This document shows, piece after piece, positions 8,979 through 60,206 of a stretch of 64,000 nucleotides of DNA (position 1 is its first letter; each line of letters starts with the position of its first letter). This stretch comes from an uncultured bacterium (GTDB taxonomy: Bacteria; Actinomycetota; Geothermincolia; Geothermincolales; Geothermincolaceae): assembly GCA_963814495.1 (NCBI GenBank), contig CAWFDJ010000027.1, positions 32,691 through 96,690 on the forward strand, in the 5' to 3' direction. The notes beneath the pieces were generated by a model that saw nothing but the letters and a program-made list of their open reading frames with translations, searched no databases and had not been told where the DNA came from. The position numbers and the translations under genes are program-made.

Positions 8979-10514
8979 TCAAGCCGGCTCGTTCAACTTC
9001 CTATATACACCGGAGAGCTTCCGGTAGATCTTCTTGAAGGCGTCGAAGAGCTCGTCGTAGGTCTGCCGGTTGCCCCGGTCGGGCTCGTAGGTGCGGCGCA
9101 CCTTGACCACCTGCTTCAGCTCCTTGTAATCCTGGTAGATGTTGAGGGCCACCGCCACCGCCAGGGCGCAGCCCACCGCCCCGGCTTCCTGGGCGTCCTC
9201 CACCGCTTCGATGCGGTGGCCGGTGACGTCGGCGAAGATCTGCATCCAGATGTCCGAGCGCGCCCCGCCGCCGATGGTGCGCACCGTGGGACAGGGATAG
9301 CCCGCGCCGCCCACCGCCTCCAGCAGCCAGCGGCAGTTCATGGCCACCCCCTCGTAGACGGCGCGCAGCATGTCCTCGCGGGTGTGCTCCAGGCTGACGT
9401 TGAGGAAGGCGCCGCGCAGGGTGGTGTCGGTCACCGGCGAGCGCTCCCCGAACATCCACGGGGTGAAGATGAGCTTGCGCGACCCCGCCGGCACGTCCGC
9501 TATGGCCTTGTCGAGCACGGCGAAGATCTCCATGTCCTTGCCGGCCTGGTCCCATTCCTCCTTGCGGCCCAGTTGCTCGGCGAACCACTTGAGGCAGGCG
9601 CCGGCCGTCTCCGTCTCCCCGATCATCAGGAAGGAGTTGGGGTCGGCCGAGGCGATGGCGGCGATGCCGTACTTGCTCAAGCTCTTGGGCTTGGCCACGC
9701 TGATGCACAGCCATCCCGAGGTGCCGATGTAGATGTGGGCGTCCCCCTCGCCCAGGGCACCCGAGCCGGTGGCGGCGGCGGGCACGTCGCCCATGCCCCC
9801 GATGACCGGGAGCCCCGGGCGCAGGCCCATCCGCTTCGCCGCGTCGTCGTTGAGTACTCCCACCACTTCCACCGACTTCTTCACCGGCGGCAGCTTGTCC
9901 AGCGGGATGCGCAGCAGCTTCGAGAAGAGGGGCGACCAGTCGCGGGTCTTGTTGTCCAGCAGGCCGGTGGCGGCGGCGTTGCTCTGGTCGATGATGTAGT
10001 TGCCGGTGGAGCGGTAGACCAGGTAGCCGTTGACGTCCAGGATGACCTTGGCGCGCTGGTAGATCTGCGGCTCCTCCTCGCGCAGCCACATGTGCTTGCA
10101 GATGACGTCCTTGCCCGAGGGCACCGCCCCGGCCACCTTGGCCACGATGGTCTCCCCACCCATCCGCTTGACCAGGCGGCAGGCCTGCTCGTCGGCGCGC
10201 GAGTCGATCCAGATGATGGCCGGGCACAGGGGCAGGCCGGCGTCGTCCATGGGCAGCACCCCCAGCATCTGGGTGGCGTAGCCGATGCCCAGGACCTCGT
10301 CGGGGTCGGTGCCGGTCTCCTCCATGAGCTTGCGGGTGGACTCGGTCACCGCCTTCCACCAGTCCTCCGGGTCCTGCTCCGCCCAGGCCGGCCGGCAGTA
10401 GTCGGTACAGTAGGGCTCGAAGCGGTAGGAGATGATCTTCCCCTCCAGGTCGGTGAGGACGGCCTTGCTGCCCCCCGTCCCCACGTCGTGGCTGATGATG
10501 TACTTACCTCCCAT
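8979..10514 (-). CDS. FGGY-family carbohydrate kinase (xylulokinase-like)
   Basis: HDVGTGGSKA, EQDPEDWW, WIDSRA, GGMGD, IGTSGW, PWMFGERSP, RAVYEGVA and GGGARS motifs. Confidence 0.92.
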   Translation of the reverse strand: MGGKYIISHDVGTGGSKAVLTDLEGKIISYRFEPYCTDYCRPAWAEQDPEDWWKAVTESTRKLMEETGTDPDEVLGIGYATQMLGVLPMDDAGLPLCPAIIWIDSRADEQACRLVKRMGGETIVAKVAGAVPSGKDVICKHMWLREEEPQIYQRAKVILDVNGYLVYRSTGNYIIDQSNAAATGLLDNKTRDWSPLFSKLLRIPLDKLPPVKKSVEVVGVLNDDAAKRMGLRPGLPVIGGMGDVPAAATGSGALGEGDAHIYIGTSGWLCISVAKPKSLSKYGIAAIASADPNSFLMIGETETAGACLKWFAEQLGRKEEWDQAGKDMEIFAVLDKAIADVPAGSRKLIFTPWMFGERSPVTDTTLRGAFLNVSLEHTREDMLRAVYEGVAMNCRWLLEAVGGAGYPCPTVRTIGGGARSDIWMQIFADVTGHRIEAVEDAQEAGAVGCALAVAVALNIYQDYKELKQVVKVRRTYEPDRGNRQTYDELFDAFKKIYRKLSGVYRKLNEPA

Positions 10515-11354: not shown

Positions 11355-11759
11355 ATGGCGAAGTTCTTGAGCGATAAATGGCTGAAGGAGTGCAGGAAGA
11401 CCCTGCAGGACTCGGATGAGTTCAAGTCCGAGGCGAGGGACTTCTCCGGCGATTTCATCTTCTCCTTCGAGGCAGACGACGAACTCGCCAAGACCAAGCG
11501 CCTCTTCCTGTCCATCCACGGAGGCAACTGCGATGAGGCGGTCTTCCTCAACGGCGAGCCCTATCCCGACGCCGATTACCGCATCTCGGCCCCCTATTCC
11601 CTGTGGATGAGGATGATCAGGGGGGAGGAAGACGCTCTTGCGGCCTTCACCTCGCGCAAGGTCAAGATCAAGGGGAACATGCTCCGGCTGATGATGAACT
11701 CGGGCTCGGCCGTCGCCCTGGTCAAGGCCCTCGCCGGCGTCCCCATAGATTTCAACTGA
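11355..11759 (+). CDS. SCP2 sterol/lipid-binding domain protein
   Basis: FLSDKWL..., ADYRISAPYSLW..MIRGEEDALAAF...KVKIKGNMLRLM pattern; GGAG RBS. Confidence 0.8.
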   Translation: MAKFLSDKWLKECRKTLQDSDEFKSEARDFSGDFIFSFEADDELAKTKRLFLSIHGGNCDEAVFLNGEPYPDADYRISAPYSLWMRMIRGEEDALAAFTSRKVKIKGNMLRLMMNSGSAVALVKALAGVPIDFN

Positions 11760-44998: not shown

Positions 44999-46516
44999 AT
45001 GATCACCACGGGTGAGATCCTCGCCCGCAACGCCCGCAAGTTCCCCGAGCGGGAGGGCCTGGTGTTCGAGGACAAACGCTATACCTATGCCGCATTGAAC
45101 GAAGCTGTCAACCGGCTGGCCGGTTCGCTGACGCAGATGGGGCTGGAAAAGGGCGAGAAGGTGGGCATCCTCAGCCTCAATTCCGACTCCTTCGTGATAT
45201 CTTATTTCGCCGTCATGAAGGCGGGCGGGGTCGTGGTCCCCCTGAACTACCGCCTGGCCCCGCCCGAGGCCTTCTACATCCTGGACAACAGCGACTCCAG
45301 GTTCTTCATCGTCGGCGAGGAGTTCCTCGGCCTGGCCATGGAGATCCGGGAGAGGCTCCCCATGGTGGAGAAGTGGATCCAGGCGGACGGAAAGGCTTCC
45401 GGCGACTTCGAGTACCTGCCCGACCTCATCGCCTCCGGCGACCCCGCGGAGCCCGCCGTGAAGGTGGACCTCTTCGACGAATCGGCCATCATCTACACCG
45501 CGGGCACGGCCGGCAAGCCCAAGGGCGCCGTCTTCAATCACTACAGCCACCTCTCCATCGCCACGGCCATGCTCTCGGAGCTGGCCATGCGCGAGACCGA
45601 CCGCATCCTGCACGTCGCCCCCCTCTACGACGCCGCCGACCTCCACCTCTTCCTCTGGCCCGGCACCTTCGTGGGCGCCACCCACGTGGTGATGCGGGAG
45701 TTCATCCCCGAGACGGTCTTGAAGACCATCGAGCAGGAGCGGGTGACGCATTTCTTCGGGGCCTCCACCATGTACCTGCTGTTGATGCAGGAGCCGTCGT
45801 TTAACCAATACGACCTGAGCTCGCTGAGGTACCTGGCCTACGGCGCCGCGCCCCTCGACCGCGAGCAGGTCGTCCAGGCCGAGGAGATGTTCAAGACCGA
45901 CAGGTTCTTCTGTTTCTGCGGCCTCACCGAGGGAGGGCCGGGCGGGGTGCGCCTGCGCCCCGAGGACCAGGTCGCCAAGGCCGGGACCGGCGGGCTGCCC
46001 ATCATCAACTGCGAGTCCCGCGTGGTCGACGACGCGGGCAACGACGTGGCGGCCGGAGAGATGGGCGAGTGGATGGTGCGCTGCGAGAGCAACATGCTCC
46101 ACTACTACAACAACCCCGACGCCACCGCGGAGACGCTGACGGCCGACGGCTGGCTGCACACCGACGACATGGCCATAGTGGACGATGACGGCTACGTCAC
46201 CCTGGTGGACCGCAAGACCGAAGTGGTGGTCACCGGCGGCGAGAAGGTCTACCCGCGGGAAGTGGAGATGGCCCTGCTGGAATGCCCCGGGGTGATGGAC
46301 GTCGCGGTGGTCGGCCAGCCCGATGAGATCTACGGGGAAATGGTCAAGGCCTTCATCGTCCCCCTGCCCGACGCGGTCCTCACCGACGAAGGGATGCTCG
46401 ATTTCTGCCGGGGCAGGCTGGGCGATTTCAAGATCCCCACTGCCTGGGAGTTCGTTGACGTCCTGCCGCGCAACCCCTCCGGCAAGCTCCAGAAGTACAT
46501 GCTGCGCGACATGTGA
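44999..46516 (+). CDS. Long-chain acyl-CoA synthetase-like AMP-binding protein with altered core motifs
   Basis: YTAGTAGKPKG, PLYD, GLTEGG, WLHTDD, DRK, LPRNPSGK. Confidence 0.85.
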   Translation: MITTGEILARNARKFPEREGLVFEDKRYTYAALNEAVNRLAGSLTQMGLEKGEKVGILSLNSDSFVISYFAVMKAGGVVVPLNYRLAPPEAFYILDNSDSRFFIVGEEFLGLAMEIRERLPMVEKWIQADGKASGDFEYLPDLIASGDPAEPAVKVDLFDESAIIYTAGTAGKPKGAVFNHYSHLSIATAMLSELAMRETDRILHVAPLYDAADLHLFLWPGTFVGATHVVMREFIPETVLKTIEQERVTHFFGASTMYLLLMQEPSFNQYDLSSLRYLAYGAAPLDREQVVQAEEMFKTDRFFCFCGLTEGGPGGVRLRPEDQVAKAGTGGLPIINCESRVVDDAGNDVAAGEMGEWMVRCESNMLHYYNNPDATAETLTADGWLHTDDMAIVDDDGYVTLVDRKTEVVVTGGEKVYPREVEMALLECPGVMDVAVVGQPDEIYGEMVKAFIVPLPDAVLTDEGMLDFCRGRLGDFKIPTAWEFVDVLPRNPSGKLQKYMLRDM

Positions 46517-47630: not shown

Positions 47631-48367
47631 ATGAAGGCGGGGTTGTTCAAGAAATGGTCGATAATGCTAGTTCGCCATGTATGCCACCGCGCGAATATCG
47701 ATCCTCAACATCTTCAAGGTATATCTCGGGGGCGGTTACTCTCGCGCATATGCCGACAAGATATTCAGGTGGTACGCCGACAAGCGTTGATGCAAATCGG
47801 TGAAGATGAGGGTCACCTTCAACGACCCCCACCACCTCAAGTTCGAACCGGGCATCCCCTACATGGTGATGTCCAACCACCGCAGCCATTACGACATCCC
47901 GCTGGCGGTCAAGTACATGCCCGGGAAGCGTGCGCATGCTCACCAAGCAGGAACTGCGCAAGGTGCCCATCTGGGGCAAGTCCCTCTCCGTCGGCGAGTT
48001 CGTCTTCATCGACCGCTCCGACCTGGAGAAGGCCAAGACAGTCACTGGCCGAGGCCCGGAGAGTCATGGAAAGCGGGGTGGTGCTGTGGGTGGCCGCCGA
48101 GGGGACCCGCTCGCGCGACGGACGCTGGGCGAGTTCAAGAAGGGCGGCTTCATCACGGCCATCGAGGCCGGGGCCACCATCATACCGGTGGGCGTCAACG
48201 GTTCGGAGAAGGTGCTGCCTCCCAAGACCTGGGAGTTCCACCTGGACCAGGAGGTGGAGTTCACCATCGGCGAGCCCATCGACGCCTCCCGCTACACCCT
48301 GGACAACAAGGAAGACCTCATCGCGGTGGTGCGCGACTCCATCGCCCACCTCTGCGGCGAAGCCTAG
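47631..48367 (+). CDS. Lysophospholipid acyltransferase (PlsC family), several indels
   Basis: NHRSHYDIP (HxxxxD), KQELRKVP, FIDRS, EGTRS, FKKGGF. Confidence 0.82.
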
Positions 48368-48420
48368 CCAACGGAGTCACGCCAGCCGGGCCGGCCCCGG
48401 CGCCCGGGGAGTGAAGACAT

Positions 48421-49533
48421 ATGCGGATAAACACCTTCCGGCTCGAGCGGTACTTCGCCGCGCGCGAGTTCGGCGCGGCCCGCACCCTCTCGAGCTCTGA
48501 CTGCGAGTCCCTCTCCCAGGCCGAGCTCCTGGCGATGGCGGACGGCGAGTCGCGGGAACTCTGGGACCAGCTCAGCCTCGGCTACACGGAGACGGCCGGC
48601 GCGCCCTTCCTGCGCGCCGAGATCGCCGGGCTGTACGGCCGCATCGACCCCGGGGAGGTCCTGGTGACCGTGCCGGTGGAGGGGATATTCCTGGCGATGA
48701 ACTCCATCCTCGACCGGGGCGACCACGTGATCTGCGCCTTCCCCGGATACCAGGCGCTCTACGAGGTGGCGCTGGCCATCGGGTGCGAGGTCGAGAGGTG
48801 GGCCGCCGACGAGGAGCAGGGCTGGCGCTTCGACCCGGCCTGGCTGGAGGAGCACGTCCGCCCGGACACCCGGCTGATCGCCGTAAACTTCCCGCACAAC
48901 CCGACCGGGTGCCTGCCGGGACTCGAGGACCTCGAGCGGATGGTCCAGGCGGCGCGCGGGTGCGGGGCCTACCTGTTCTCGGACGAGATGTACAGGTACC
49001 TCGAACTGGAGCCGGAAACGCGCCTGCCGCCCGCGTGCGACCTCTACGACCGGGGCGTCTCCCTCGGCGGGATGTCCAAGAGCTTCGGGATGCCCGGGGT
49101 GCGTATCGGCTGGCTGGCCACCCGGGACCACGGGCTGCTCCTGCGGATGCAGGGCCTCAAGGACTACACCACCATCTGCTCCGGCGCGCCCGGCGAGGTC
49201 CTCGCCACCATCGCCCTGCGCCGCCGGGACGACATCGTCGGGAAGAACCTCGCGCTCATCCGGGCCAACCTGGAGACACTGGACGGTTTCTTCGACAGGC
49301 ACCGGGAGCTCTTCTCCTGGAACCGTCCAGCCGCCGGGACGGTGGCGTTTCCGGGGTTGCTCGGCGGCAGCGGCGCGGACCGTCTCTGCGACGAAGCGCT
49401 GTACCGGGCCGGCGTGATGCTGCTCCCCGCGTCGGCCTTCGAGTACGGTGACCGCCACTTCCGGGTCGGCTTCGGCCGGCGCGACCTGCCCGAGGCGCTG
49501 GACGCGTTCGAGAGATACCTGCATGGCGATTGA
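48421..49533 (+). CDS. PLP-dependent aminotransferase class I/II
   Basis: NFPHNPTG, FSDEMY, MSKSFGMPGVRIGW. Confidence 0.9.
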   Translation: MRINTFRLERYFAAREFGAARTLSSSDCESLSQAELLAMADGESRELWDQLSLGYTETAGAPFLRAEIAGLYGRIDPGEVLVTVPVEGIFLAMNSILDRGDHVICAFPGYQALYEVALAIGCEVERWAADEEQGWRFDPAWLEEHVRPDTRLIAVNFPHNPTGCLPGLEDLERMVQAARGCGAYLFSDEMYRYLELEPETRLPPACDLYDRGVSLGGMSKSFGMPGVRIGWLATRDHGLLLRMQGLKDYTTICSGAPGEVLATIALRRRDDIVGKNLALIRANLETLDGFFDRHRELFSWNRPAAGTVAFPGLLGGSGADRLCDEALYRAGVMLLPASAFEYGDRHFRVGFGRRDLPEALDAFERYLHGD

Positions 49534-50706
49534 GGACGTCTTCGTGGCGGGCGCCGGGTTCATGGGCTCAGGCATCGCCCAGGCGGCCGCGGCCGCCGGC
49601 TGCCGGGTCACCGTCTACGACCTGGACGAGGAGCGCCTGGCGGCGGGACGGGCGAGCATCTCAAGCTCCCTCGAAAGGCTCGAGGCCAAGGGTAAGGTGA
49701 CCCGCGGGGAGCGCGACGCCACGCTGGCGAACATCTCCTTCACCACCGGCGCGGACCAGGCCCGTTCGGCCGGCCTGGTCATCGAGGCGGTCACCGAGAA
49801 GCTGGGGGTCAAACGGGAGCTCTTCTCCCGCCTGGACGGCATCTGCCCCGCCCGCACCATCTTCGCCACCAACACCTCCGGCCTCCCGGTCTCCTCCATC
49901 GCCTCGGCCACCGCGCCGGCCGGACCGGGTGGTGGGCATCCACTTCTTCTTCCCCGTCCCCCTGGTGCGCTTCTGCGAGATCATGGGCGGCCTGCTGACG
50001 TCGGAGGCTACGCTGGAGGCGGCCGGCGGCTGGGCGCGCGCCATGGGCAAGGAGACGGTGCGGGTGCGCAAGGACCACGCCGGCTTCCTCGCCAACCGCT
50101 TCAGCTCCCCCATCACCGTGGAGGCCCTGTGCCTGGTGGACCGGGGCACCGCCACGCCCGAGGAGATAGACAGGGCCACCGGCGGCTTCGAGTACGGCAC
50201 CGGCCCCCTGCAGCTCATCGACTACACCGGGCTGGACACCGGGCTCTACGCGCTGGAGTCCATCTACAACGACACGGGCGAGCTCAGGTTCAGGCCCGCC
50301 GCCGGTGCTGCGCCGCCTGGTGGCGGCGGGCCTGCTGGGACGCAAGACCGGCCGGGGTTTCTACGACTACTCGCAGGGCAGGGGCAGGAGTTACGGCAGC
50401 TTCGTAAGGACGCGCGGCGAGCCCCCCGACCCCGCGGTCCTGGTCCGGAGGCTGATGGTGCCGGGCATGCTGGAGGCCGTGCGCATGCTGGAGGCCGGGG
50501 TGGCGAGCGCCGAAGACATCGACCGCGCCGCCCGCCTGGGGCTCAACCTCCCCGCGGGCCAGCTGGAGATGGCGGACGGAATGGGCCTGGCGGCCCTGAT
50601 GGAGGCGGCCACGGCACTGTACGAGGAGACCGGGGACCCCAAGTTCTTCCCCCCTCCCCTGCTGCGCCGCCTGGCGGCTGCCGGCATGCGTCTGCGCGAG
50701 CACTGA
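49523..50706 (+). CDS. 3-hydroxyacyl-CoA dehydrogenase with a duplicated C-terminal domain (frameshifts ~49920 and ~50300)
   Basis: GAGFMGSGIA, VIEAV.E, ATNTS, GIHFF.PV, GFLANR, GRKTGRGFY. Confidence 0.85.
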
Positions 50707-50793
50707 GAACGCCGCCGCCAGCGCGATGTACGTGTCCGTTTTGGTCAGTCATTAAAAACAGCTTGTAGAGTTGTATTTAACAGTCATTTTAAC

Positions 50794-52369: not shown

Positions 52370-52818
52370 TGAATGTACCCAACCTCCTCTTCAAGGGATT
52401 AGGCTACTTCTACAGGCTGCTCTACCTCGTCCCCGTGCTGGGCGACAGGATGGTGCGGGGGATGGGCGCGGCCATAGCTACCGGCAACTGCCGCTCCCCC
52501 TACGGCATCAAGGAGTTCGTCTCCATGGACGATTTCCGCCGGCAGTTCGAAGGGCTGGTGAAGATGGCCGACCTTCCCGTCGTGGTTACCGGCCACGACG
52601 AGGAGCGGCTGCAGCTGGTGGTGGACCATTGCCCCTACGGTTTCACCGAGCCGAAGCACTGGGGGGTCTGCCGGGCCGCCATGTACATGGACGAGAAGAT
52701 GTACGGCTACTGCGGGGCCACGCTGCTCATCGACGAGAGCATCCCGGACGGCGACCCCGTCTGCAAGTGTTCCATATACGCGCCGGGCAAGGCGCCGGGT
52801 GAAAAAGGAGGAAAGTGA
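52369..52818 (+). CDS. Hypothetical Cys-containing protein (V4R/ATC-hydrolase-like pattern)
   Basis: ATG overlaps the upstream TGA; HCPY..VC....D..IPDGDPVC. Read from the C-terminal part of ORF 51439..52818. Confidence 0.55.
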   Translation: MNVPNLLFKGLGYFYRLLYLVPVLGDRMVRGMGAAIATGNCRSPYGIKEFVSMDDFRRQFEGLVKMADLPVVVTGHDEERLQLVVDHCPYGFTEPKHWGVCRAAMYMDEKMYGYCGATLLIDESIPDGDPVCKCSIYAPGKAPGEKGGK

Positions 52819-54366
52819 TGGCGGGCGACAAGTACGACGTGATCATCATCGGCGCCGGGGTGGGCGGCCTGGTCTGCGGCAACTACCTGGCGCGCAGCGG
52901 CAAGAAGGTGCTCATCGTCGAGCACGGCAAGCACGTCGGCGGCAACATCTCGGGCATCCGCCGCAAGGGCTACTTCTTCGACGCCGGCTCCCAGTCCACC
53001 GAGAACGTGGGGATCCTCTTCCCCATCCTCGAGGACCTGGGGCTGCTCAACCCCTCCGAGTGGGACCAGGCCGACTGGCGCTGGATGACCCCCGACTGCG
53101 ACGTGGTGCTGCGCGACTTCCCGCAGATCCGGGCGGACTTCAAGAAGTCCTTCCCGGAGTCGGCCTCCGACATCGACGCCTGGTTCGACTTCATCGAGCC
53201 GGGGACCATGCTGATGAAGGAACTGATGAAGGAGCCCTTCCCGCTGCTGAAGCGGGGCGCCGAGAAGTACAAGCTGAACTTGAAGATGGGCAAGAGTGGG
53301 GCTGCCCCTGCTCAAGAACGCCCACGAGACCCTGCGCATGTCGGGCAGCGAGAAGGCGCGGGAGATCTTCAGCGACCCGCGCCTGGCCTTCCTCTTCGGG
53401 GAGTTCGGCAACGAGAACATGCTGCTCTTCATGTACTACGCCTTCTGGTACAGCTTCCTCTACGACTACACCTACCCCCGCGGCGGCCTGGTGGCCCTGG
53501 CGAAGATGCTGGGTGACAACTTCTTAAAGCTCGGCGGGGAGATCAAGACCTCCTGCACCATCGACAAGGTGCTGACGGCGGGGCAGTCCGCCAACGGCGT
53601 CGAGACCTCCGAGGGGGAGCAGTTCTTCGCCGACAAGATCGTCAACACCGGCAACACCAAGCGGCTGGTGACGGAGATGTGCGACCCCGCGCTCTTCCCT
53701 AAGAAGTTCACCGCGCGCAACAAGGGTGGAGAGGTGAGCATCTCGGTGGTCAACGCCTTCCTGGGCCTGGACATGGACGACGCCGAGCTCATGGAAAAGC
53801 ACAAGGTGCACCATGCCCTCTACTGGCGGACCTACGACGCCAAAGCCGACATCTACGACCCGGAGCTGCACCGCAAGAGCTGGGCCATGACCAGTTGGGT
53901 CTCCATGCACGACAAGAGCCTGGCGCCGGAGGGCAAGAACTCCCTCCTGGTGCAGATACCCATGCCCTACGACTGGATGAACGGCTGGGGCACCGGCTCC
54001 TCCGACCCCACCGTCCGCAACGAGGCCTACAAGGAGCTGAAGGCCAGGGTGCTGGACGACATCATCGAGGACCTGGAGCCCATGATCCCCGGCATCCGCG
54101 ACAAGGTGGAGTACAAGGACCTGGCGACGCCGCGCACCCTCTCCCGCTACACCATGAACCCGGAGGGCTCCATCATGGGCTGGTCCTACGACATGTACAA
54201 GACGCCGCTGTTCGGCCGCTTCGTCCAGTTCACCACGCCGGTGAAGAACCTCTACCTGGCCGGCCATTACTCCATCTGGCCGGGCGGCATCGTCTTTTCC
54301 GCCCTCACCGGCAAGCTGGTGGCGGAGGGCATGTACGAGGGCTTCGCCAAGACCCTCCTCTGGTAA
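52818..54366 (+). CDS. Second CrtI-family FAD oxidoreductase (frameshift ~53300)
   Basis: IIGAGVGG, GYFFDAG, YPRGG, ATPRTL.RY, GSIMGW, NLYLAGH. Confidence 0.82.
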
Positions 54367-54422
54367 CGTCATCAGGGGAGATCTCGTGTCAGTCCGGGTT
54401 TGCGCAACACGAGGAGTCTGAT

Positions 54423-55217
54423 ATGAGAAGCCTTGGAGAGTTTCGGAAGGTCACACCTCACGACCCGTTTATGTCCGGAGATAACCTGTCTTATTTTGTG
54501 GGAGGATATTTTCCAAAAGCGGATCTTATGAGGATCTTGCGCGGAGGGATGTCCATTCCTTCTGACGAGGTCATAGCCAGGGAATTCCCGACTGTAGCGC
54601 GGAGAAAGGGCATGATCCCGTTCTTGACCCTGTACAGCAGGTGCAGCAACGTCCGCGAGCATATCTTCGACGTCACTGTGCGTCCGTACCTGGAGATCAA
54701 CTTCTTCTTCCCGGTCACTTACACGCATAAGGGCGAGGAGCATCTATGCGCGTTCATGCCGCTGCTCTACCTCGATCGCCTTTTCCACTCGATTGCCGGA
54801 TGTTCTCTAGGCTTGCGCAAACAATTCCACCCCAACTTGAGATTCACTGAGACCGATACGTTGTGCGCTTTCAAACTCGAAAACATCCTCAGTGCGAGTT
54901 TTCCGGATGATTCGATGGAAGAGGCGGAAGGGATCGACCCGTTCTTCGCGCAGATATTCACCAAGCCGACCCTGACCTATTCCTATTTCCTTAAGACCGA
55001 CTTCTACACGACGCAAGTGTTTGATGTTAAAAGAGTGTACAAGGCTTCAGCTGACATCGAATGGAACTACAAGGGTACCGTGGTCAAGAGCGACGAGTAT
55101 ACCTTCTGCAACTTTGCCGAGTACAGCTTCACGGTTTCACGAGCCATGAGTTACGAAAAGTACTTTCACCCGAAATACCCTGTAGGCTGGAGCCGGATGG
55201 CCGGGCAGTGCGAATAG
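54423..55217 (+). CDS. Hypothetical protein, possibly acetoacetate-decarboxylase-like fold; AT-richer
   Basis: Open frame in the C-terminal part of ORF 53895..55217; PYLEINFFFPV..FMPLLYLD..AG..GLRK. Confidence 0.5.
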   Translation: MRSLGEFRKVTPHDPFMSGDNLSYFVGGYFPKADLMRILRGGMSIPSDEVIAREFPTVARRKGMIPFLTLYSRCSNVREHIFDVTVRPYLEINFFFPVTYTHKGEEHLCAFMPLLYLDRLFHSIAGCSLGLRKQFHPNLRFTETDTLCAFKLENILSASFPDDSMEEAEGIDPFFAQIFTKPTLTYSYFLKTDFYTTQVFDVKRVYKASADIEWNYKGTVVKSDEYTFCNFAEYSFTVSRAMSYEKYFHPKYPVGWSRMAGQCE

Positions 55218-55260: not shown

Positions 55261-55346
55261 GTCATTGCGAGGAGCGGAGCGACGAAGCAATCTCTTTAGA
55301 TCGCTTCGCTTCGCTCGCGATGACAGCAGCTTCGCTCGCGATGACA
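55261..55346. repeat. REP/MITE-like GTCATTGCGAG...CTCGCGATGAC palindromic element with a duplicated 3' end
   Basis: gtcattgcgaggagcggagcgacgaagcaatctc...gatcgcttcgcttcgctcgcgatgaca, with cttcgctcgcgatgacagc present twice. Confidence 0.7.
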
Positions 55347-55432
55347 GCTGCTGTTGCGCGGTATAATATCCTTAAAGGCTTGGCCGCAAGGGCATCTGCG
55401 AACGTCCCTTCGACGTAAAGGAGGACCCGCGC

Positions 55433-57114
55433 ATGAGACTCTCCAGGAAGTTCAGGCCGGACTGGTCGGAACAGGCCCCCAAACCCGGGACCTACAGGTC
55501 CATCGCCAAGTACGGAGACCCCCATCACTTCAAGCACCCCAGCGACGCGTGGGTCCGGATGATGCAGGAGGAGTTCGGCATGAGCGACGCCGACTTCTCG
55601 GTCAAGCAGCACGAGGGGCACGAGACCGTCACCCTCGGCCGCCCGGTCGCCCTGAAGGATGGGCAGGTCGAGGCGCTCGAGGCCATGGTGGGCAAGGAGA
55701 ACGTGGCCTCAGACGACTTCAGCCGCGTCAGGTATTCCTCCGGCAAGACCACCGAGGAGATCTGGGAGCTGCGCCGGGGCATCGTCCGCGAGGTGTGCGA
55801 CGTGGTGGTCCACCCGCGCGACAAGCACGACGTGCAGAAGATAGTGGAGTACTGCGACGCCGAGCGCATCCCGGTGACCGTCTTCTCCGGCGGGTCGTCC
55901 TGCAACTTCGGCTGCCGCCCCATGCGGGGAGGCGTCACCCTGGTGCTGAGCACGCACATGAACCAGCTGCTGGAGGTGAACGAGCTCGACCAGACCGCGC
56001 GGGTGCAGCCGGGCATGTTCGGGCCGGCCTACGAGGAGGCCCTCAACCGGCGCGGCTACACCTGCGGCCACTTCCCGCAGTCCTTCGAGTACTCCACGGT
56101 GGGCGGCTGGGTGGTGACCCTCGGTTCGGGCCAGGCCTCCACCTATTACGGCGACGCCTACGACATCGTCTTCAGCCAGGAATACGTCACCCCGGCCGGC
56201 ACCTTCAAGACCCTGGACTACCCGGCCACCGCCACCGGCCCCAAGGTCAACGACATCATGAAGGGCTCGGAGGGCACCTTCGGCATCCTGGTCGAGGTGA
56301 CCATGCGGGTCTTCCGGTACACGCCGGAGAACCGGCGGCGCTTCAGCTTCATGTTCCCCACCTGGGAGAAGGCGGTGGACGCCAGCCGCCAGATAATGCA
56401 GGGCGAGTTCGGCCTGCCCGCCATCTACCGCATCTCCGACCCGGAGGAGACCGACCGCGGCTTGAAGCTCTACGGCATGCCGTCCTTCCTGGAGCCGTTC
56501 CTCGCAGCGCCTGGGCTTCATGCCCATGCAGCGCTGCCTGTGCCTGGGCAACGTCGAAGGCGACAAGGACTACACCCGCCTGGTGGCGCGCAAGATACTG
56601 CGCATCGCCCTGGCCCACGGCGCCATGCCCCTGGGCGGTTACGCCGGCCCGCAAGTGGGAGCACACCCGCTACACCGAGCCGTACATGCGCGAGGACCTC
56701 AACGACTTCGGCATCATCACCGACACGCTGGAGACCAGCGTCACCTGGGACAGCCTGCACCGGGTGCACGAAGGAGTGCGCGCCTACGTCAAGAGCTTCC
56801 CCGGCGCCATCTGCATGACCCACGCCTCGCACTCCTATCCCCAGGGGACCAACCTCTATTTCATCTTCCTCCTGCGCATGGAGATGGATGAATACATAGA
56901 ATTCCAGGCCGGCGTGGTCGAAAAGATGCTCGAGTCCGGCGGCACCCCCAGCCACCATCATGGAATAGGCCGGCTGCTCGCGCCGTGGCTGGAGCCCCAC
57001 CTGGGGAAGGAACAGGTGGAGGTGCTCAAGGCGTTGAAGCGCCACTTCGACCCGCACGGCATCATGAACCCCGGCGGCCAGCTGGGGCTCGACGACATCC
57101 CCCCGCTGCGATGA
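55433..57114 (+). CDS. FAD-linked oxidase, alkyl-DHAP-synthase-like (frameshifts ~56510 and ~56650)
   Basis: GHFPQSFEYSTVGGW, GSGQASTYYG, GSEGTFG, DTLETS, THASHSY..GTNLYF, SHHHGIG, DPHGIMNPG. Confidence 0.85.
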
Positions 57115-58670
57115 AGGACCTGATAGTCGCCATCGATTCCGGGACCCAGAGCATCCGCGCGGTGCTCTTCGACAAGCACGGCACGCAGCTGGCCATCGAG
57201 CAGGCCGACTACGAGCCCTACTTCTCCCTGGAGCCCGGCTGGACCGAACAGCATACCGAGGACTACTGGGAGAAGCTCTGCCGGGTGTGCCGGGGCCTCA
57301 TGGACCAGATAGACATCGACCCCTCCCGCATCGCCGGCATCGGCATGACCAGCCAGCGCAACACGGTCATCCCCGTGGACCGGGAGGGCAACGCCCTGCG
57401 CCCGGCCATCGTCTGGCTGGACCAGCGCACCGTCGACGAAGTGCCGCCCCTGGCCGCGCCCCTGCAGCTCGTGGTCAAGCTGATCGGCCAGGAAGAACAG
57501 CTGCGCTACGCCCGCAAGCACTCCAAGTACCTGTGGATCAGGGAGCACGAGCCCGAGGTCTACAGCCGGACCCACAAGTTCGTGCAGGCCACGAGCTTCT
57601 TCGTCCACAAGCTCACCGGGGAGTTCCGCGACTCCTGCGCCATGATCTCCGGCATCTACCCCTTCGACTACAAGGCGCTGCGCTACTACGGCGCGCCCCT
57701 GGGCTTCATCTACGGCGCCCTGGGCGTCGAGAAGGGCCACTGCGTCGAGCTCTTCCCCCCGGATAAGCCCCTGGGCCGCATCACCGCGCAGGCGGCGCGG
57801 GAGACCGGCCTGCCGGAAGGCCTGCCGCTGGTGGTGGGGGGCGGCGACAAGCAGTGCGAGCTGCTCGGGGCCGGCGCCATCGACCCGTCCATCGCCGAGA
57901 TAAGCTTCGGGACGGGGACGGCCATGGAGGTCATCTCCTACAAGTACCTGAAGGACGCGAAGATGCGCTACTTCACCTGGCCGGCCGCGGTGCCGCGGGC
58001 CTGGGTGCTGGAGTCGTTCATCATGCGCGGCTTCTGGATGGTGACCTGGTTCAAGCAGGAGTTCGGCCACCGCGAGGCCATGGAAGCGGAGCGGCGCGGG
58101 GTGGCGCCGGAGGTGGTGCTGGACGAGGTCATCCGGGACATCCCCCCGGGCTGCCAGGGGCTGATGCTGCAGCCGTTCTGGACTCCCGCCGTGAGCAACA
58201 AGTACGGCAGGGGCGCCATCCTCGGCTTCGGCGACCACCACACCCGCGCCCACATCTACCGCGCCATCTTCGAGGGCATCTGCTTCGAGCTGCGCCGCCT
58301 GCAGGAGATCGTGCAGCGCAAGAACGGCGTCCCTTTGAAGAGTATCCGCGTGGGGGGCGGCGGCTCGCGCTCGGACGTGGTGGTGCAGATAGCCGCCGAC
58401 ATGTTCGACCTGCCCGTCTCGCGCATGGCCACCTCCGAGATCGCCGCCCTGGGCGCGGCCATCGACGCTGCCGTCGGCACCGGCATGTACGCAAGCTTTG
58501 ATGAGGCGGTGTCGGCCATGAGCCACGTGGGCCAGACCTTCCGGCCCGATCCAAGCAACCACCGCGTCTACACCCGGCTCTTCAACGAGGTGTACGTGGA
58601 GTCGTTCCGCGCCCTGGACCCGCTGTACAGGCGCATCGCCGAGATCACCGGGTACCCGGCGGAGGACTGA
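57111..58670 (+). CDS. FGGY-family carbohydrate kinase
   Basis: IDSGTQSIRA, WLDQR, GGGDKQ, SFGTG, RAIFEG, GGGSRS; ATGA overlap with the upstream gene. Confidence 0.9.
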   Translation: MKDLIVAIDSGTQSIRAVLFDKHGTQLAIEQADYEPYFSLEPGWTEQHTEDYWEKLCRVCRGLMDQIDIDPSRIAGIGMTSQRNTVIPVDREGNALRPAIVWLDQRTVDEVPPLAAPLQLVVKLIGQEEQLRYARKHSKYLWIREHEPEVYSRTHKFVQATSFFVHKLTGEFRDSCAMISGIYPFDYKALRYYGAPLGFIYGALGVEKGHCVELFPPDKPLGRITAQAARETGLPEGLPLVVGGGDKQCELLGAGAIDPSIAEISFGTGTAMEVISYKYLKDAKMRYFTWPAAVPRAWVLESFIMRGFWMVTWFKQEFGHREAMEAERRGVAPEVVLDEVIRDIPPGCQGLMLQPFWTPAVSNKYGRGAILGFGDHHTRAHIYRAIFEGICFELRRLQEIVQRKNGVPLKSIRVGGGGSRSDVVVQIAADMFDLPVSRMATSEIAALGAAIDAAVGTGMYASFDEAVSAMSHVGQTFRPDPSNHRVYTRLFNEVYVESFRALDPLYRRIAEITGYPAED

Positions 58671-58690
58671 CGGGCTTTTTCAAAGAGGAG

Positions 58691-58813
58691 ATGACGTCCA
58701 TGGACGGCTTTGACTGGTCGATGCTGGGAGGCTTCATCGACTACTGGGAGGAAGACGAGGAAGACGAGCAGCCGGCTCGCTCAGGCGAAGACGATGATGA
58801 AGAAGATGAATAG
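58691..58813 (+). CDS. 40-aa highly acidic microprotein
   Basis: GAGGAG RBS, then MTSMDGFDWSMLGGFIDYWEEDEEDEQPARSGEDDDEEDE*; not in the ORF track. Confidence 0.45.
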   Translation: MTSMDGFDWSMLGGFIDYWEEDEEDEQPARSGEDDDEEDE

Positions 58814-58817
58814 GGGC

Positions 58818-59378
58818 ATGGCGCCCGTGTACGGGAGCGAGGAGTGGGAGGCCGTCTACCAGGAGATCCTCCAGAGGAGGCTGCGGGAGCAGTCCCCGCC
58901 CTACGTCCAGGGCACACCGGAGTGGATGGACGCTTACGAGAAGTCGATCCAGGGCGATGCCGCCTACCGGGAAGCGGCCGCGGACTGGGAGGGCTCGCTG
59001 GTCTTCCACTTCCTGGCCTCCCCCGACGTGGGACTGGAGCGGGACTCTTACATGTACCTGGACCTGTGGCACGAGGAGTGCCGGGCCGTCAGGCCGGTGC
59101 CTGAGGAGGTGGGCGAGGCGGCCGACTTCATCCTCTCGGCCTCCTACTGGACCTGGAGAAAGGCCAACCTCGGCGAACTGGACACCAACAAGGGCATCCT
59201 GCAGGGGAAGATCAGGCTCAAGGGCGACCTCGGCAGCGTGGTGCGCCACAACCAGGCGGCGGCGCGGCTCGGCATACTCTCAGCGAAGGTGGGAGGGCGC
59301 TGGCTGGACGAGTTGGACCCCGGGGAACGGGAAGAGATCAGGCTGCTCAACCGGGAACTGAGAGACCGGCTGATGTAG
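58818..59378 (+). CDS. SCP2 lipid-binding domain protein with an N-terminal extension
   Basis: YVQGTPEWMDAY...WEG..YLDLWHEEC..ADFILSASY..W..GELD..LQGKIRLKGDL. Confidence 0.8.
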   Translation: MAPVYGSEEWEAVYQEILQRRLREQSPPYVQGTPEWMDAYEKSIQGDAAYREAAADWEGSLVFHFLASPDVGLERDSYMYLDLWHEECRAVRPVPEEVGEAADFILSASYWTWRKANLGELDTNKGILQGKIRLKGDLGSVVRHNQAAARLGILSAKVGGRWLDELDPGEREEIRLLNRELRDRLM

Positions 59379-59386
59379 CTTCCCGG

Positions 59387-60206
59387 TTAATCGAGCCCCG
59401 CCTCCTTGAGCAACGCGTCCCTGTCCGGTATCCCCTTGTAGTGATACGGGCTGCTGATCCGGGTGGTGATGCAGTCCTCGGGGCAGCAGTTGACACAGCG
59501 CCAGCATGCGGTACATTCCTTGCCGAAGACCGGGTAAGGGTCCAGCCGGATGGCGCCTGCCGCACAGTCCCTCGCGCAGATGCCGCACCTGGTGCAGTCC
59601 GACTCGATGACCTTCTTCTTCCCCATTGCCAGGTTCGCGCGGCCCTTGGTAAGCCGCTCAAACCTCGAAAGCAGGAACAGCGGGGTGGGACGCACGCGGT
59701 ACCGGGGCAGCTCGACCTGTTCTCCCGCAAGGAAGGCCGCTTGCGCTTCGAGCATCCTCCCGGTGAAGGCGGCGAGCGCGCGGACCGATGCCGCATCGGG
59801 TCTTTCCCCGTCGAGTTTATGGGTAGCGCGCCTGGAGACGGGCCAGGAGTCGGGGCACAACAGGTCGTGATGGCCGGTGACCGTGACGCCCTTCTTCTTC
59901 AGCCAGCCCGCCATCAGGGGAGCGGTCTGGCTCGGCTGCCCGCCCGAACTCGACAGCAGGAAGGCGGGCTTCTTCCCCAGGGACGGCATGGCCTTGATGA
60001 AACGCTCCACGTTCTTGGTGGGCTGCCAGGCCTGCAGGGGCGTGGCGAAGCAGTAAGCGTCGTAATCGCCCAGCGATATCTCGCCGGCCTTCGCGAACGT
60101 CCGCATGGTCACCTGCGTGCCCGCTCTTCTCCGCCACGGTCTTCGCCACCGTGCAGGCGAACTCGGTGTTTCCGGTCCCCGAGTAGTAGAGGATCAGCAG
60201 CTTCAT
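59387..60206 (-). CDS. EFR1-like flavodoxin-ferredoxin fusion (frameshift ~60115)
   Basis: YYSGTGNT; CTRCGICARDC and CTACWRCVNCCP. Confidence 0.85.

Follow-up and report, generated by a model that had tools for sequence, protein, structure and literature searches.

We examined a 64,000-nt window of DNA from an uncultured bacterium of the class Geothermincolia (Actinomycetota; contig CAWFDJ010000027.1 of assembly GCA_963814495.1), and within it the locus at positions 55433 to 59378, where a gene for a flavoenzyme resembling alkyl-dihydroxyacetone-phosphate synthase (ADPS) is followed by a gene for an FGGY-family kinase and then by one for an SCP2-fold protein. Comparison with related loci shows that the flavoenzyme and kinase genes are the core of a gene cluster widespread among strict anaerobes. 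The principal features, in window positions, are as follows.

55433-57114, plus strand: the whole ADPS-like flavoenzyme (oxidase) gene, with FAD_binding_4 and FAD-oxidase_C domains.
55433-56506, plus strand: flavoenzyme segment 1, delimited by alignment to relatives, with the N-terminal extension, FAD_binding_4 (PF01565, 1.6e-32) and the first part of the cap.
56507-56646, plus strand: flavoenzyme segment 2, shifted one base onward by the extra base at ~56506, from a three-frame translation.
56647-57114, plus strand: flavoenzyme segment 3, in the frame that follows the second extra base (~56646), with PF02913 (1.1e-26) and the stop codon TGA at 57112-57114.
57111-58670, plus strand: FGGY-family kinase of 519 aa, intact (FGGY_N 2.9e-44, FGGY_C 3.4e-27).
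58818-59378, plus strand: SCP2-fold protein of 186 aa (PF02036 at 30.1 bits, cut-off 21.3), or of 194 aa if read from the ATG at 58794.

With the joined window protein and an intact relative (P0006) as queries, the best solved-structure match was Dictyostelium ADPS (2UUU, 1.2e-65), and the mammalian (guinea pig) enzyme matched as well (4BBY, 1.5e-48), over about 480 residues (75-554). Glycolate oxidase (6.6e-23) and D-lactate dehydrogenases (no better) matched the N-terminal FAD domain only. Mutagenesis has shown R352, R447 and Y508 (Dictyostelium numbering) to be important in ADPS (PMC3509576). The equivalents of all three, together with the HHH loop, are found in the window's enzyme as IYRISD, PYMRED, NLYF and SHHHG, and are invariant in 27 members of its clade. 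The window's flavoenzyme is thus a genuine member of the ADPS family (VAO/PCMH flavoenzymes, K00803 type) and not a D-lactate or glycolate oxidase, and the ADPS-like identity given in the preliminary description stands.

The window's enzyme shares with eukaryotic ADPS (2UUU, 4BBY) the W..RY..PY.RD motif, the catalytic residues and an N-terminal extension before the FAD domain; the extension is about 110 residues long, and alignment to 2UUU runs only from residue 75 on. Identity to the eukaryotic enzymes is about a third or less, as gauged from bacterial ADPS-like relatives (31-38%). The closest relatives form a tight clade of proteins of about 566 aa, 73-81% identical, from Geothermincolia and other Actinomycetota, Syntrophales/Smithella, Desulfomonilia and Desulfobacteraceae (Thermodesulfobacteriota included). 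A search of 1.84 billion representatives at E below 1e-30 gave an ADPS-like family of 711 clusters at 50% identity, with intermediates at 39-61% identity and most members at 31-38%. Trees of the family resolve individual clades, not deeper nodes; in them, both eukaryotic ADPS sequences group with an acyltransferase-ADPS fusion (P0161) in a clade of 16 rows (SH-aLRT 100), to which the window's clade (SH-aLRT 100) does not belong. The latter is a separate, well-supported branch, and it differs from eukaryotic ADPS by an 8-residue insert, which the window's own copy lacks.

The preliminary description had the oxidase retaining SHHHG and the LYF tyrosine. Both are present and align, but only in the third frame, and the oxidase is not one open reading frame (ORF). 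Two 1-nt insertions (~56506 and ~56646, by DNA alignment to the related loci L005, L006, L011 and L031) spread it over three frames; the 461-aa ORF that begins at 55433 lacks both motifs, and by translation and alignment to 2UUU segment 3 holds the PYMRED arginine, the NLYF tyrosine and SHHHG. At 56046 the gene also lacks 24 nt, in frame, which costs the protein 8 residues that every relative with a readable motif has kept, and this deletion is unique to the window's copy.

The oxidase could therefore be a real pseudogene, the decaying remnant of an acquired module in which only the kinase and the SCP2 protein still function. Such a reading would fit two non-compensating insertions 140 nt apart, a unique deletion in a universally kept segment, and the absence from the locus of the GlpD-like and DUF362 partners described below. 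However, the essential genes eno (contig C32, ~30-1284), rpoB (91314-94458) and rpoC (87023-91115) are each frame-split in the same assembly, and at least four neighbours in the window are broken as well (the 3-hydroxyacyl-CoA dehydrogenase, second CrtI-like, PlsC-like and flavodoxin/4Fe-4S genes). The G+C content of third codon positions (GC3) is 0.87-1.0 in segment 1, 0.93 in segment 2 and at least 0.93 in each shifted segment; the joined translation shares 81% identity with its best relative and is still about 80% identical to relatives past the shifts, and the ATGA coupling to the kinase is intact. Because eno, rpoB and rpoC are broken too and GC3 is undiminished after each shift, the frameshifts are most probably artefacts of assembly. 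The deletion of 24 nt may be real. Decay of the gene is thus very improbable in our judgement, a question partly independent of which function the module serves. Since the assembly has about one indel in every few kb, any pseudogene or frameshift call in this genome needs read support.

The stop codon of the oxidase overlaps the start codon of the kinase in an ATGA at 57111-57114, and the two genes are therefore translationally coupled. The coupled operon of the preliminary description is borne out for this pair but not for SCP2, which starts 147 nt (58818) or 123 nt (58794) past the kinase stop; orthologues of 186 aa favour the start at 58818. No terminator or promoter pattern was found between kinase and SCP2.

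To place the pair in context, 40 loci of oxidase relatives from species-representative genomes were surveyed for neighbours within 8 kb. An FGGY kinase lies downstream, adjacent to the oxidase or past a DUF362 gene, in 21 of them, which is more than chance and upholds the proposed association of oxidase and kinase; in one more locus the kinase lies directly upstream. About 20 deltaproteobacterial loci have one fixed order: a FadR-type GntR regulator (19 of the 40 loci), a GlpD-like dehydrogenase (18), the oxidase, often a DUF362 protein of ~445 aa (15) and the FGGY kinase (at least 18). The GlpD-like partner reaches 304 bits against the cut-off of 360 for the glycerol-3-phosphate dehydrogenase model, and two types of kinase fill the kinase slot, 60-75% and ~44% identical to the window's kinase. 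No published description of this GntR-GlpD'-ADPS'-DUF362-FGGY' cluster was found in the searchable literature, in which DUF362 was met only as an outgroup of LarA (PMC11770544).

The window itself holds the core pair only, with an oxidase 74-81% identical to those of the cluster and a kinase 70-75% identical to the ones beside the oxidase in deltaproteobacterial loci: GlpD-like and GntR genes were not found upstream, and DUF362 was not found at the locus. Other actinobacterial loci mostly have a lone oxidase with varied neighbours, among them acyl-CoA dehydrogenases in three loci and esterases once. Neighbours of the deltaproteobacterial cluster that vary include a long-chain acyl-CoA ligase (5 loci), SDR proteins (5), and a GPH-family transporter (1, L007). 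Three loci (L016:1015-5362, L009:371-2041 and L013:6571-9573) also have, directly upstream of the cluster or close to it, a PFL2/glycerol-dehydratase-family glycyl radical enzyme, which scores 656 bits for a cut-off of 678. Neither a fatty acyl-CoA reductase nor a DHAP (dihydroxyacetone phosphate) acyltransferase is among the conserved neighbours of the clade in the 40 loci. An SdsA1-type alkyl sulfatase, an enzyme that yields a fatty alcohol, is divergent to a lone oxidase across a 307-bp gap (L049:7793-9694, minus strand); it adjoins the oxidase in one genome only (L049 being the same as L052) and was rejected as a recurrent partner.

Domain fusions extend the association with GlpD beyond the clade. 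Proteins of about 1100 aa that join an ADPS-like and a GlpD-like part (DAO + DAO_C) make up four 50%-identity clusters (P0150, P0160, P0184 and P0249), which sit at no fewer than three places in the tree, other than the lineage of the window's clade. Because the fusions recur at at least three places, coupling to GlpD is general in the bacterial ADPS-like radiation, which argues that what a GlpD-type enzyme has oxidised is the substrate of the ADPS-like one. Two clusters (P0133 and P0142) fuse NUDIX and ADPS-like domains; they form a sister lineage to the window's clade within its 20-row lineage, and NUDIX domains, too, can produce a phosphomonoester. Only one cluster, P0161, joins a PlsC-family acyltransferase to ADPS, and it groups with eukaryotic ADPS. 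Together, the conserved GlpD-like partner and the GlpD-ADPS fusions put the substrate at the level of glycerol phosphate and DHAP.

The kinase scores below every NCBIfam equivalog cut-off, the best being XylB (266 against 380); with the GlpK model TIGR01311 it reaches 179 bits, for a cut-off of 590. We take the glycerol-contact residues of E. coli GlpK to be R83, E84, W103, Y135, D245 and F270. The window's kinase keeps R83, W103 and D245 and has N for E84 and A for F270; other members have A/S and T at the E84 and F270 positions. With smaller residues in place of E84 and F270, the enzyme is no plain glycerol kinase, and it may have a larger pocket than GlpK.

The SCP2 protein had been proposed to deliver the acceptor to the kinase, and this proposal finds no support. 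An SCP2-like gene lies within 8 kb of the oxidase in 2 of the 40 loci and is never adjacent to it, and orthologues in relatives stand in a PGI-PNP-SCP2-FtsX context without oxidase or kinase; SCP2 was rejected as a conserved partner of the module on these two grounds. The family of this protein is narrow and actinobacterial, with 23 clusters, and the genome carries five paralogues of this 186-aa family. The position of the gene here is either a local accident or a lineage-specific recruitment. Elsewhere in the same window a second FGGY kinase is paired with a small, different SCP2 protein (11355-11759 and 8979-10514).

The distribution of the oxidase within the class is patchy. The window's clade is present in 9 of 41 genomes, a set that takes in the Geothermincolia metagenome-assembled genome of L005 (L005 and G036 having identical oxidase loci), and is absent from the same genus and family. 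In L005 an AbrB/SpoVT-type antitoxin and a Doc/Fic-type toxin (L005:6086-7321) precede the oxidase-DUF362-kinase unit, and an apparent tRNA remnant lies just upstream; both were judged by eye, and no tRNA search was run on the locus. This arrangement looks like an integration site. The 73-81% identity across phyla, the patchiness, the absence from genus and family and the toxin-antitoxin genes of L005 mark the oxidase-kinase pair as an accessory, horizontally acquired unit in this genome.

A second type of ADPS paralogue, 34% identical to the window's enzyme, was found in 40 of the 41 genomes and is therefore a core gene of Geothermincolia. In this genome it lies outside the window.

C22:103505-105184, minus strand: second ADPS paralogue of 559 aa, intact, with the N-terminus RWFGWG and the motifs THHHGVG and SLYYFF.

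A membrane-like protein of 399 aa, without a Pfam match, comes after it. If any gene here makes ether lipids, the C22 paralogue is a better candidate than the window's enzyme.

Taken together, the full ADPS catalytic set, the kinase, the GlpD-type enzyme, the repressor and the patchy spread across phyla point to chemistry at C1/C2 of a glycerol-phosphate-like substrate. The reading that we favour, at a probability of about 45%, is that the module is a catabolic or salvage route for a 1-substituted glycerol, passing through 1-X-DHAP, with release or exchange of X mediated by flavin N5. The kinase would first phosphorylate the free primary hydroxyl of the 1-substituted glycerol, X being an alkyl ether, an acyl ester or another group. 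A GlpD-type dehydrogenase would then oxidise C2 to the ketone and so give 1-X-dihydroxyacetone phosphate; elsewhere such an enzyme is encoded in the cluster, and here there is only a distant GlpD on another contig. In the third step the tyrosine of the ADPS-type enzyme would abstract a C1 proton, a flavin-N5 adduct would form and X-H would be expelled, after which water or another nucleophile would yield DHAP or the exchanged product. The proposed route would need no oxygen and involve no net redox change at the flavin, and would thus suit strictly anaerobic hosts. Points for catabolism are the FadR-type repressor, the GPH transporter (1 locus), the long-chain acyl-CoA ligase (5 loci) and the acyl-CoA dehydrogenases (3 actinobacterial loci). 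Of the synthesis or salvage named in the preliminary description, salvage fits the GlpD-like partner and the fusions, but de novo synthesis of ether lipids finds no support in a conserved reductase or acyltransferase.

The same kinase-then-dehydrogenase logic could serve the catabolism of a soluble polyol. In the Brucella erythritol pathway the FGGY kinase EryA phosphorylates the polyol, the GlpD-like EryB oxidises the polyol phosphate, and further enzymes act beside the new ketone; the cluster follows the same logic, but the Brucella pathway has no ADPS-like flavoenzyme or DUF362. In an erythritol-like route the kinase would give a polyol phosphate and the GlpD-like enzyme a keto-phosphate, and the ADPS-like and DUF362 proteins would act as dehydrogenase, isomerase or epimerase on a small phosphorylated sugar, with no exchange at C1. 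The kinase scores best to xylulokinase and AI-2 kinase models, if under all cut-offs, and the GPH sugar transporter of L007, the glycerol-dehydratase-family glycyl radical enzymes upstream in three loci and the sugar-type genes around E. coli ygcU and ygcE would also agree with such a route. DUF362 belongs to the same Pfam clan as the LarA 2-hydroxy-acid racemases (PMC11770544). An invariant ADPS catalytic set, complete with HHH loop and both arginines, would however be needless in a simple isomerase or dehydrogenase; the clade is far nearer to ADPS than to any hydroxy-acid dehydrogenase, and the repeated GlpD-type fusion points to a DHAP-type product. We consider soluble polyol catabolism possible, though we lean against it.

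A biosynthetic role, in which the module feeds ether lipids, is quite improbable. Glycerol (or monoacylglycerol) would be converted to glycerol-3-phosphate (or lysophosphatidate), then to DHAP (or acyl-DHAP) and, with a fatty alcohol, to alkyl-DHAP; acyl-DHAP would come from 1-acyl-glycerol-3-phosphate through GlpD-like oxidation, with no need of a DHAP acyltransferase. Membership of the ADPS family and the catalytic residues agree with this role, and so do the lipid-type genes further upstream in the window, the pathway drawn for the P. aeruginosa operon PA3026-PA3024 (PMC8151288) and the alkylglycerol ether lipids that some Thermodesulfobacteriota are reported to make (PMC5552659). The conserved neighbourhood, however, lacks the fatty acyl-CoA reductase and DHAP acyltransferase that such a role would call for, and the window's PlsC-like gene, 7 kb upstream, is no conserved companion of the clade. 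The clade also branches apart from eukaryotic ADPS and its acyltransferase fusion, the AGPS of Myxococcus xanthus sits with a FAR-GNPAT fusion (bioRxiv 10.1101/2025.10.10.681575), and the alkyl ethers of anaerobes are already explained by Ger (PMC13159169). The gene is patchy (9/41), as opposed to the 40/41 of the second paralogue, and a dedicated kinase and repressor would be unusual for membrane lipids, DHAP being always available.

Several points weigh against the catabolic or salvage route. Neither the members of the clade nor PA3026-PA3024 have a measured activity, and a PA3026-PA3024 deletion mutant had no phenotype, glycerol included (PMC8151288). The evidence fits a lipid and a soluble substrate alike. 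The FGGY kinases known to us act on soluble sugars and polyols, not on lipids. The window has neither the GlpD-like nor the DUF362 gene, and the best GlpD match of the genome, which is 77% complete, is 33% identical and on another contig. The oxidase stands alone in most class relatives, and it must therefore also work without the kinase. The unique 24-nt deletion together with the two shifts could signal real decay, and an AlphaFold2 model of P0006 (built with 27 clade members of >73% identity) had a mean pLDDT of 43.9, too low for a view of the pocket.

A more specific form of the catabolic route, which we hold to be unlikely, would make the clade enzyme an oxygen-independent 'glyceryl-X lyase' that, with the FGGY kinase and the GlpD-type dehydrogenase, cleaves glycerol ether lipids. 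The 1-O-alkylglycerols are the backbone of those bacterial and eukaryotic ether lipids which persist in anoxic sediments. Kinase and dehydrogenase would turn them into alkyl-DHAP, the ether bond would be cut by flavin-N5 covalent catalysis, and the fatty alcohol would pass to beta-oxidation and DHAP to glycolysis.

Among known systems, the P. aeruginosa operon PA3026-PA3024 is alike in encoding an oxidase to which the ADPS reaction is assigned, together with a homologue of GlpD and an FGGY kinase, under an activator, GliR (PA3027), with a proposed path from glycerol to alkylglycerone phosphate termed 'glycerolipid metabolism' (PMC8151288). Compared by description, it has the same three enzyme types in one operon and a dedicated regulator as the cluster has, but the regulator is of AraC type rather than FadR/GntR, a YegS-like lipid kinase comes after the operon, DUF362 is absent and the host is aerobic; the window, for its part, is without the GlpD-like gene. 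Genetic evidence that a bacterial ADPS-family gene takes part in ether-lipid formation exists for M. xanthus AGPS alone (MXAN_1676; bioRxiv 10.1101/2025.10.10.681575). This enzyme is described as sharing ~42% identity with human AGPS and as encoded in one operon with a FAR-GNPAT fusion protein, a partner that the window's clade lacks. More generally, the partners of the clade are the kinase and the GlpD-like enzyme where those of ADPS are FAR and GNPAT, and its hosts are strict anaerobes. The Ger paper also mentions distant agps homologues without an assigned role (PMC13159169). In the searchable literature we found no published activity for the bacterial ADPS-like radiation, and nothing on the function of Rv2251/Rv3107c/agpS or of ADPS in Smithella/Syntrophus.

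The comparison with E. coli YgcU and YgcE made in the preliminary description carries over in part. YgcU is an ADPS-like FAD protein with HHHG and the conserved tyrosine, and an FGGY kinase, YgcE, is encoded in the same region of the chromosome. YgcU is, however, 25% identical to the oxidase and YgcE 29% to the kinase, the two genes are neither adjacent nor coupled, and YgcU has no N-terminal extension or clear PY.RD motif and branches outside the ADPS-like clade, beside the GlcD outgroup.

The remaining features of the locus and its surroundings are these.

55262-55349, plus strand: dispersed REP-like element upstream of the oxidase, including a tandem 21-nt repeat, GCTTCGCTCGCGATGACAGC(A/T), in two copies at 55308-55349.
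55341-55369, plus strand: weak promoter-like site, ATGACA-17-TAATAT, with 9/12 consensus matches.
55418-55426, plus strand: Shine-Dalgarno sequence AAAGGAGGA before the oxidase, read from the sequence.
58691-58813, plus strand: doubtful, highly acidic small ORF of 40 aa, MTSMDGFDWSMLGGFIDYWEEDEEDEQPARSGEDDDEEDE, with a good ribosome-binding site of its own, AAAGAGGAG.
59387-60190, minus strand: convergent, frame-broken flavodoxin/4Fe-4S gene, which bounds the unit at 59387.
54420-55217, plus strand: ORF of 264 aa (MRSLGEFRKVTPHDPF...), without a Pfam or NCBIfam match.
44999-46516, plus strand: AMP-binding ligase, upstream of the oxidase and on the same strand.
~47690-48460, plus strand: PlsC-like gene with NHRSHYD and EGTR motifs and at least 3 frame changes.
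49448-50768, plus strand: 3-hydroxyacyl-CoA dehydrogenase, frame-broken.
52815-54366: second CrtI-like gene, frame-broken.

The tandem repeat was considered as a dedicated operator of the oxidase and rejected because the motifs of the REP-like element (GTCATTGCGAGGAGCG ... GCTTCGCTCGCGATGAC) recur at ~22-49 further sites across the contigs of the genome; an intergenic element of this kind can mimic a gene-specific operator or direct repeat. The promoter-like site is uncertain because it overlaps the element. The acidic ORF sits in the gap between the kinase and SCP2 genes, its end 5 nt ahead of the SCP2 start, and none of three relatives (L061-L063) has a counterpart before its SCP2 orthologue. 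The 264-aa ORF stands immediately before the oxidase and after the second CrtI-like gene, in a stretch whose G+C is 0.585 against ~0.66. The PlsC, ligase and 3-hydroxyacyl-CoA dehydrogenase genes pointed out in the preliminary description are indeed upstream on the same strand, but they are 5-10 kb from the oxidase and no part of its unit, being separated from it by a phosphofructokinase, an aminotransferase, two CrtI-like oxidoreductases and an unassigned ORF.

To our knowledge, the sole known role of ADPS is to form the ether bond of ether lipids. The fixed gene set of about 20 loci in syntrophs and relatives of sulfate reducers, the GlpD fusions and the similarity across phyla point to a shared putative pathway at the glycerol-phosphate/DHAP level. 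The window is a reduced and badly assembled example of it; the deltaproteobacterial loci (L016, L028) or the Geothermincolia locus L005 are better experimental material. If the C1 group of glycerol is cleaved or exchanged, the finding would bear on the oxygen-free turnover of ether lipids, which are common sediment biomarkers, and also on the unexplained PA3026-PA3024 operon of P. aeruginosa. Should the more specific lyase activity prove true, it would be the first anaerobic degradation route for glycerol ether lipids and the first catabolic use of ADPS chemistry.

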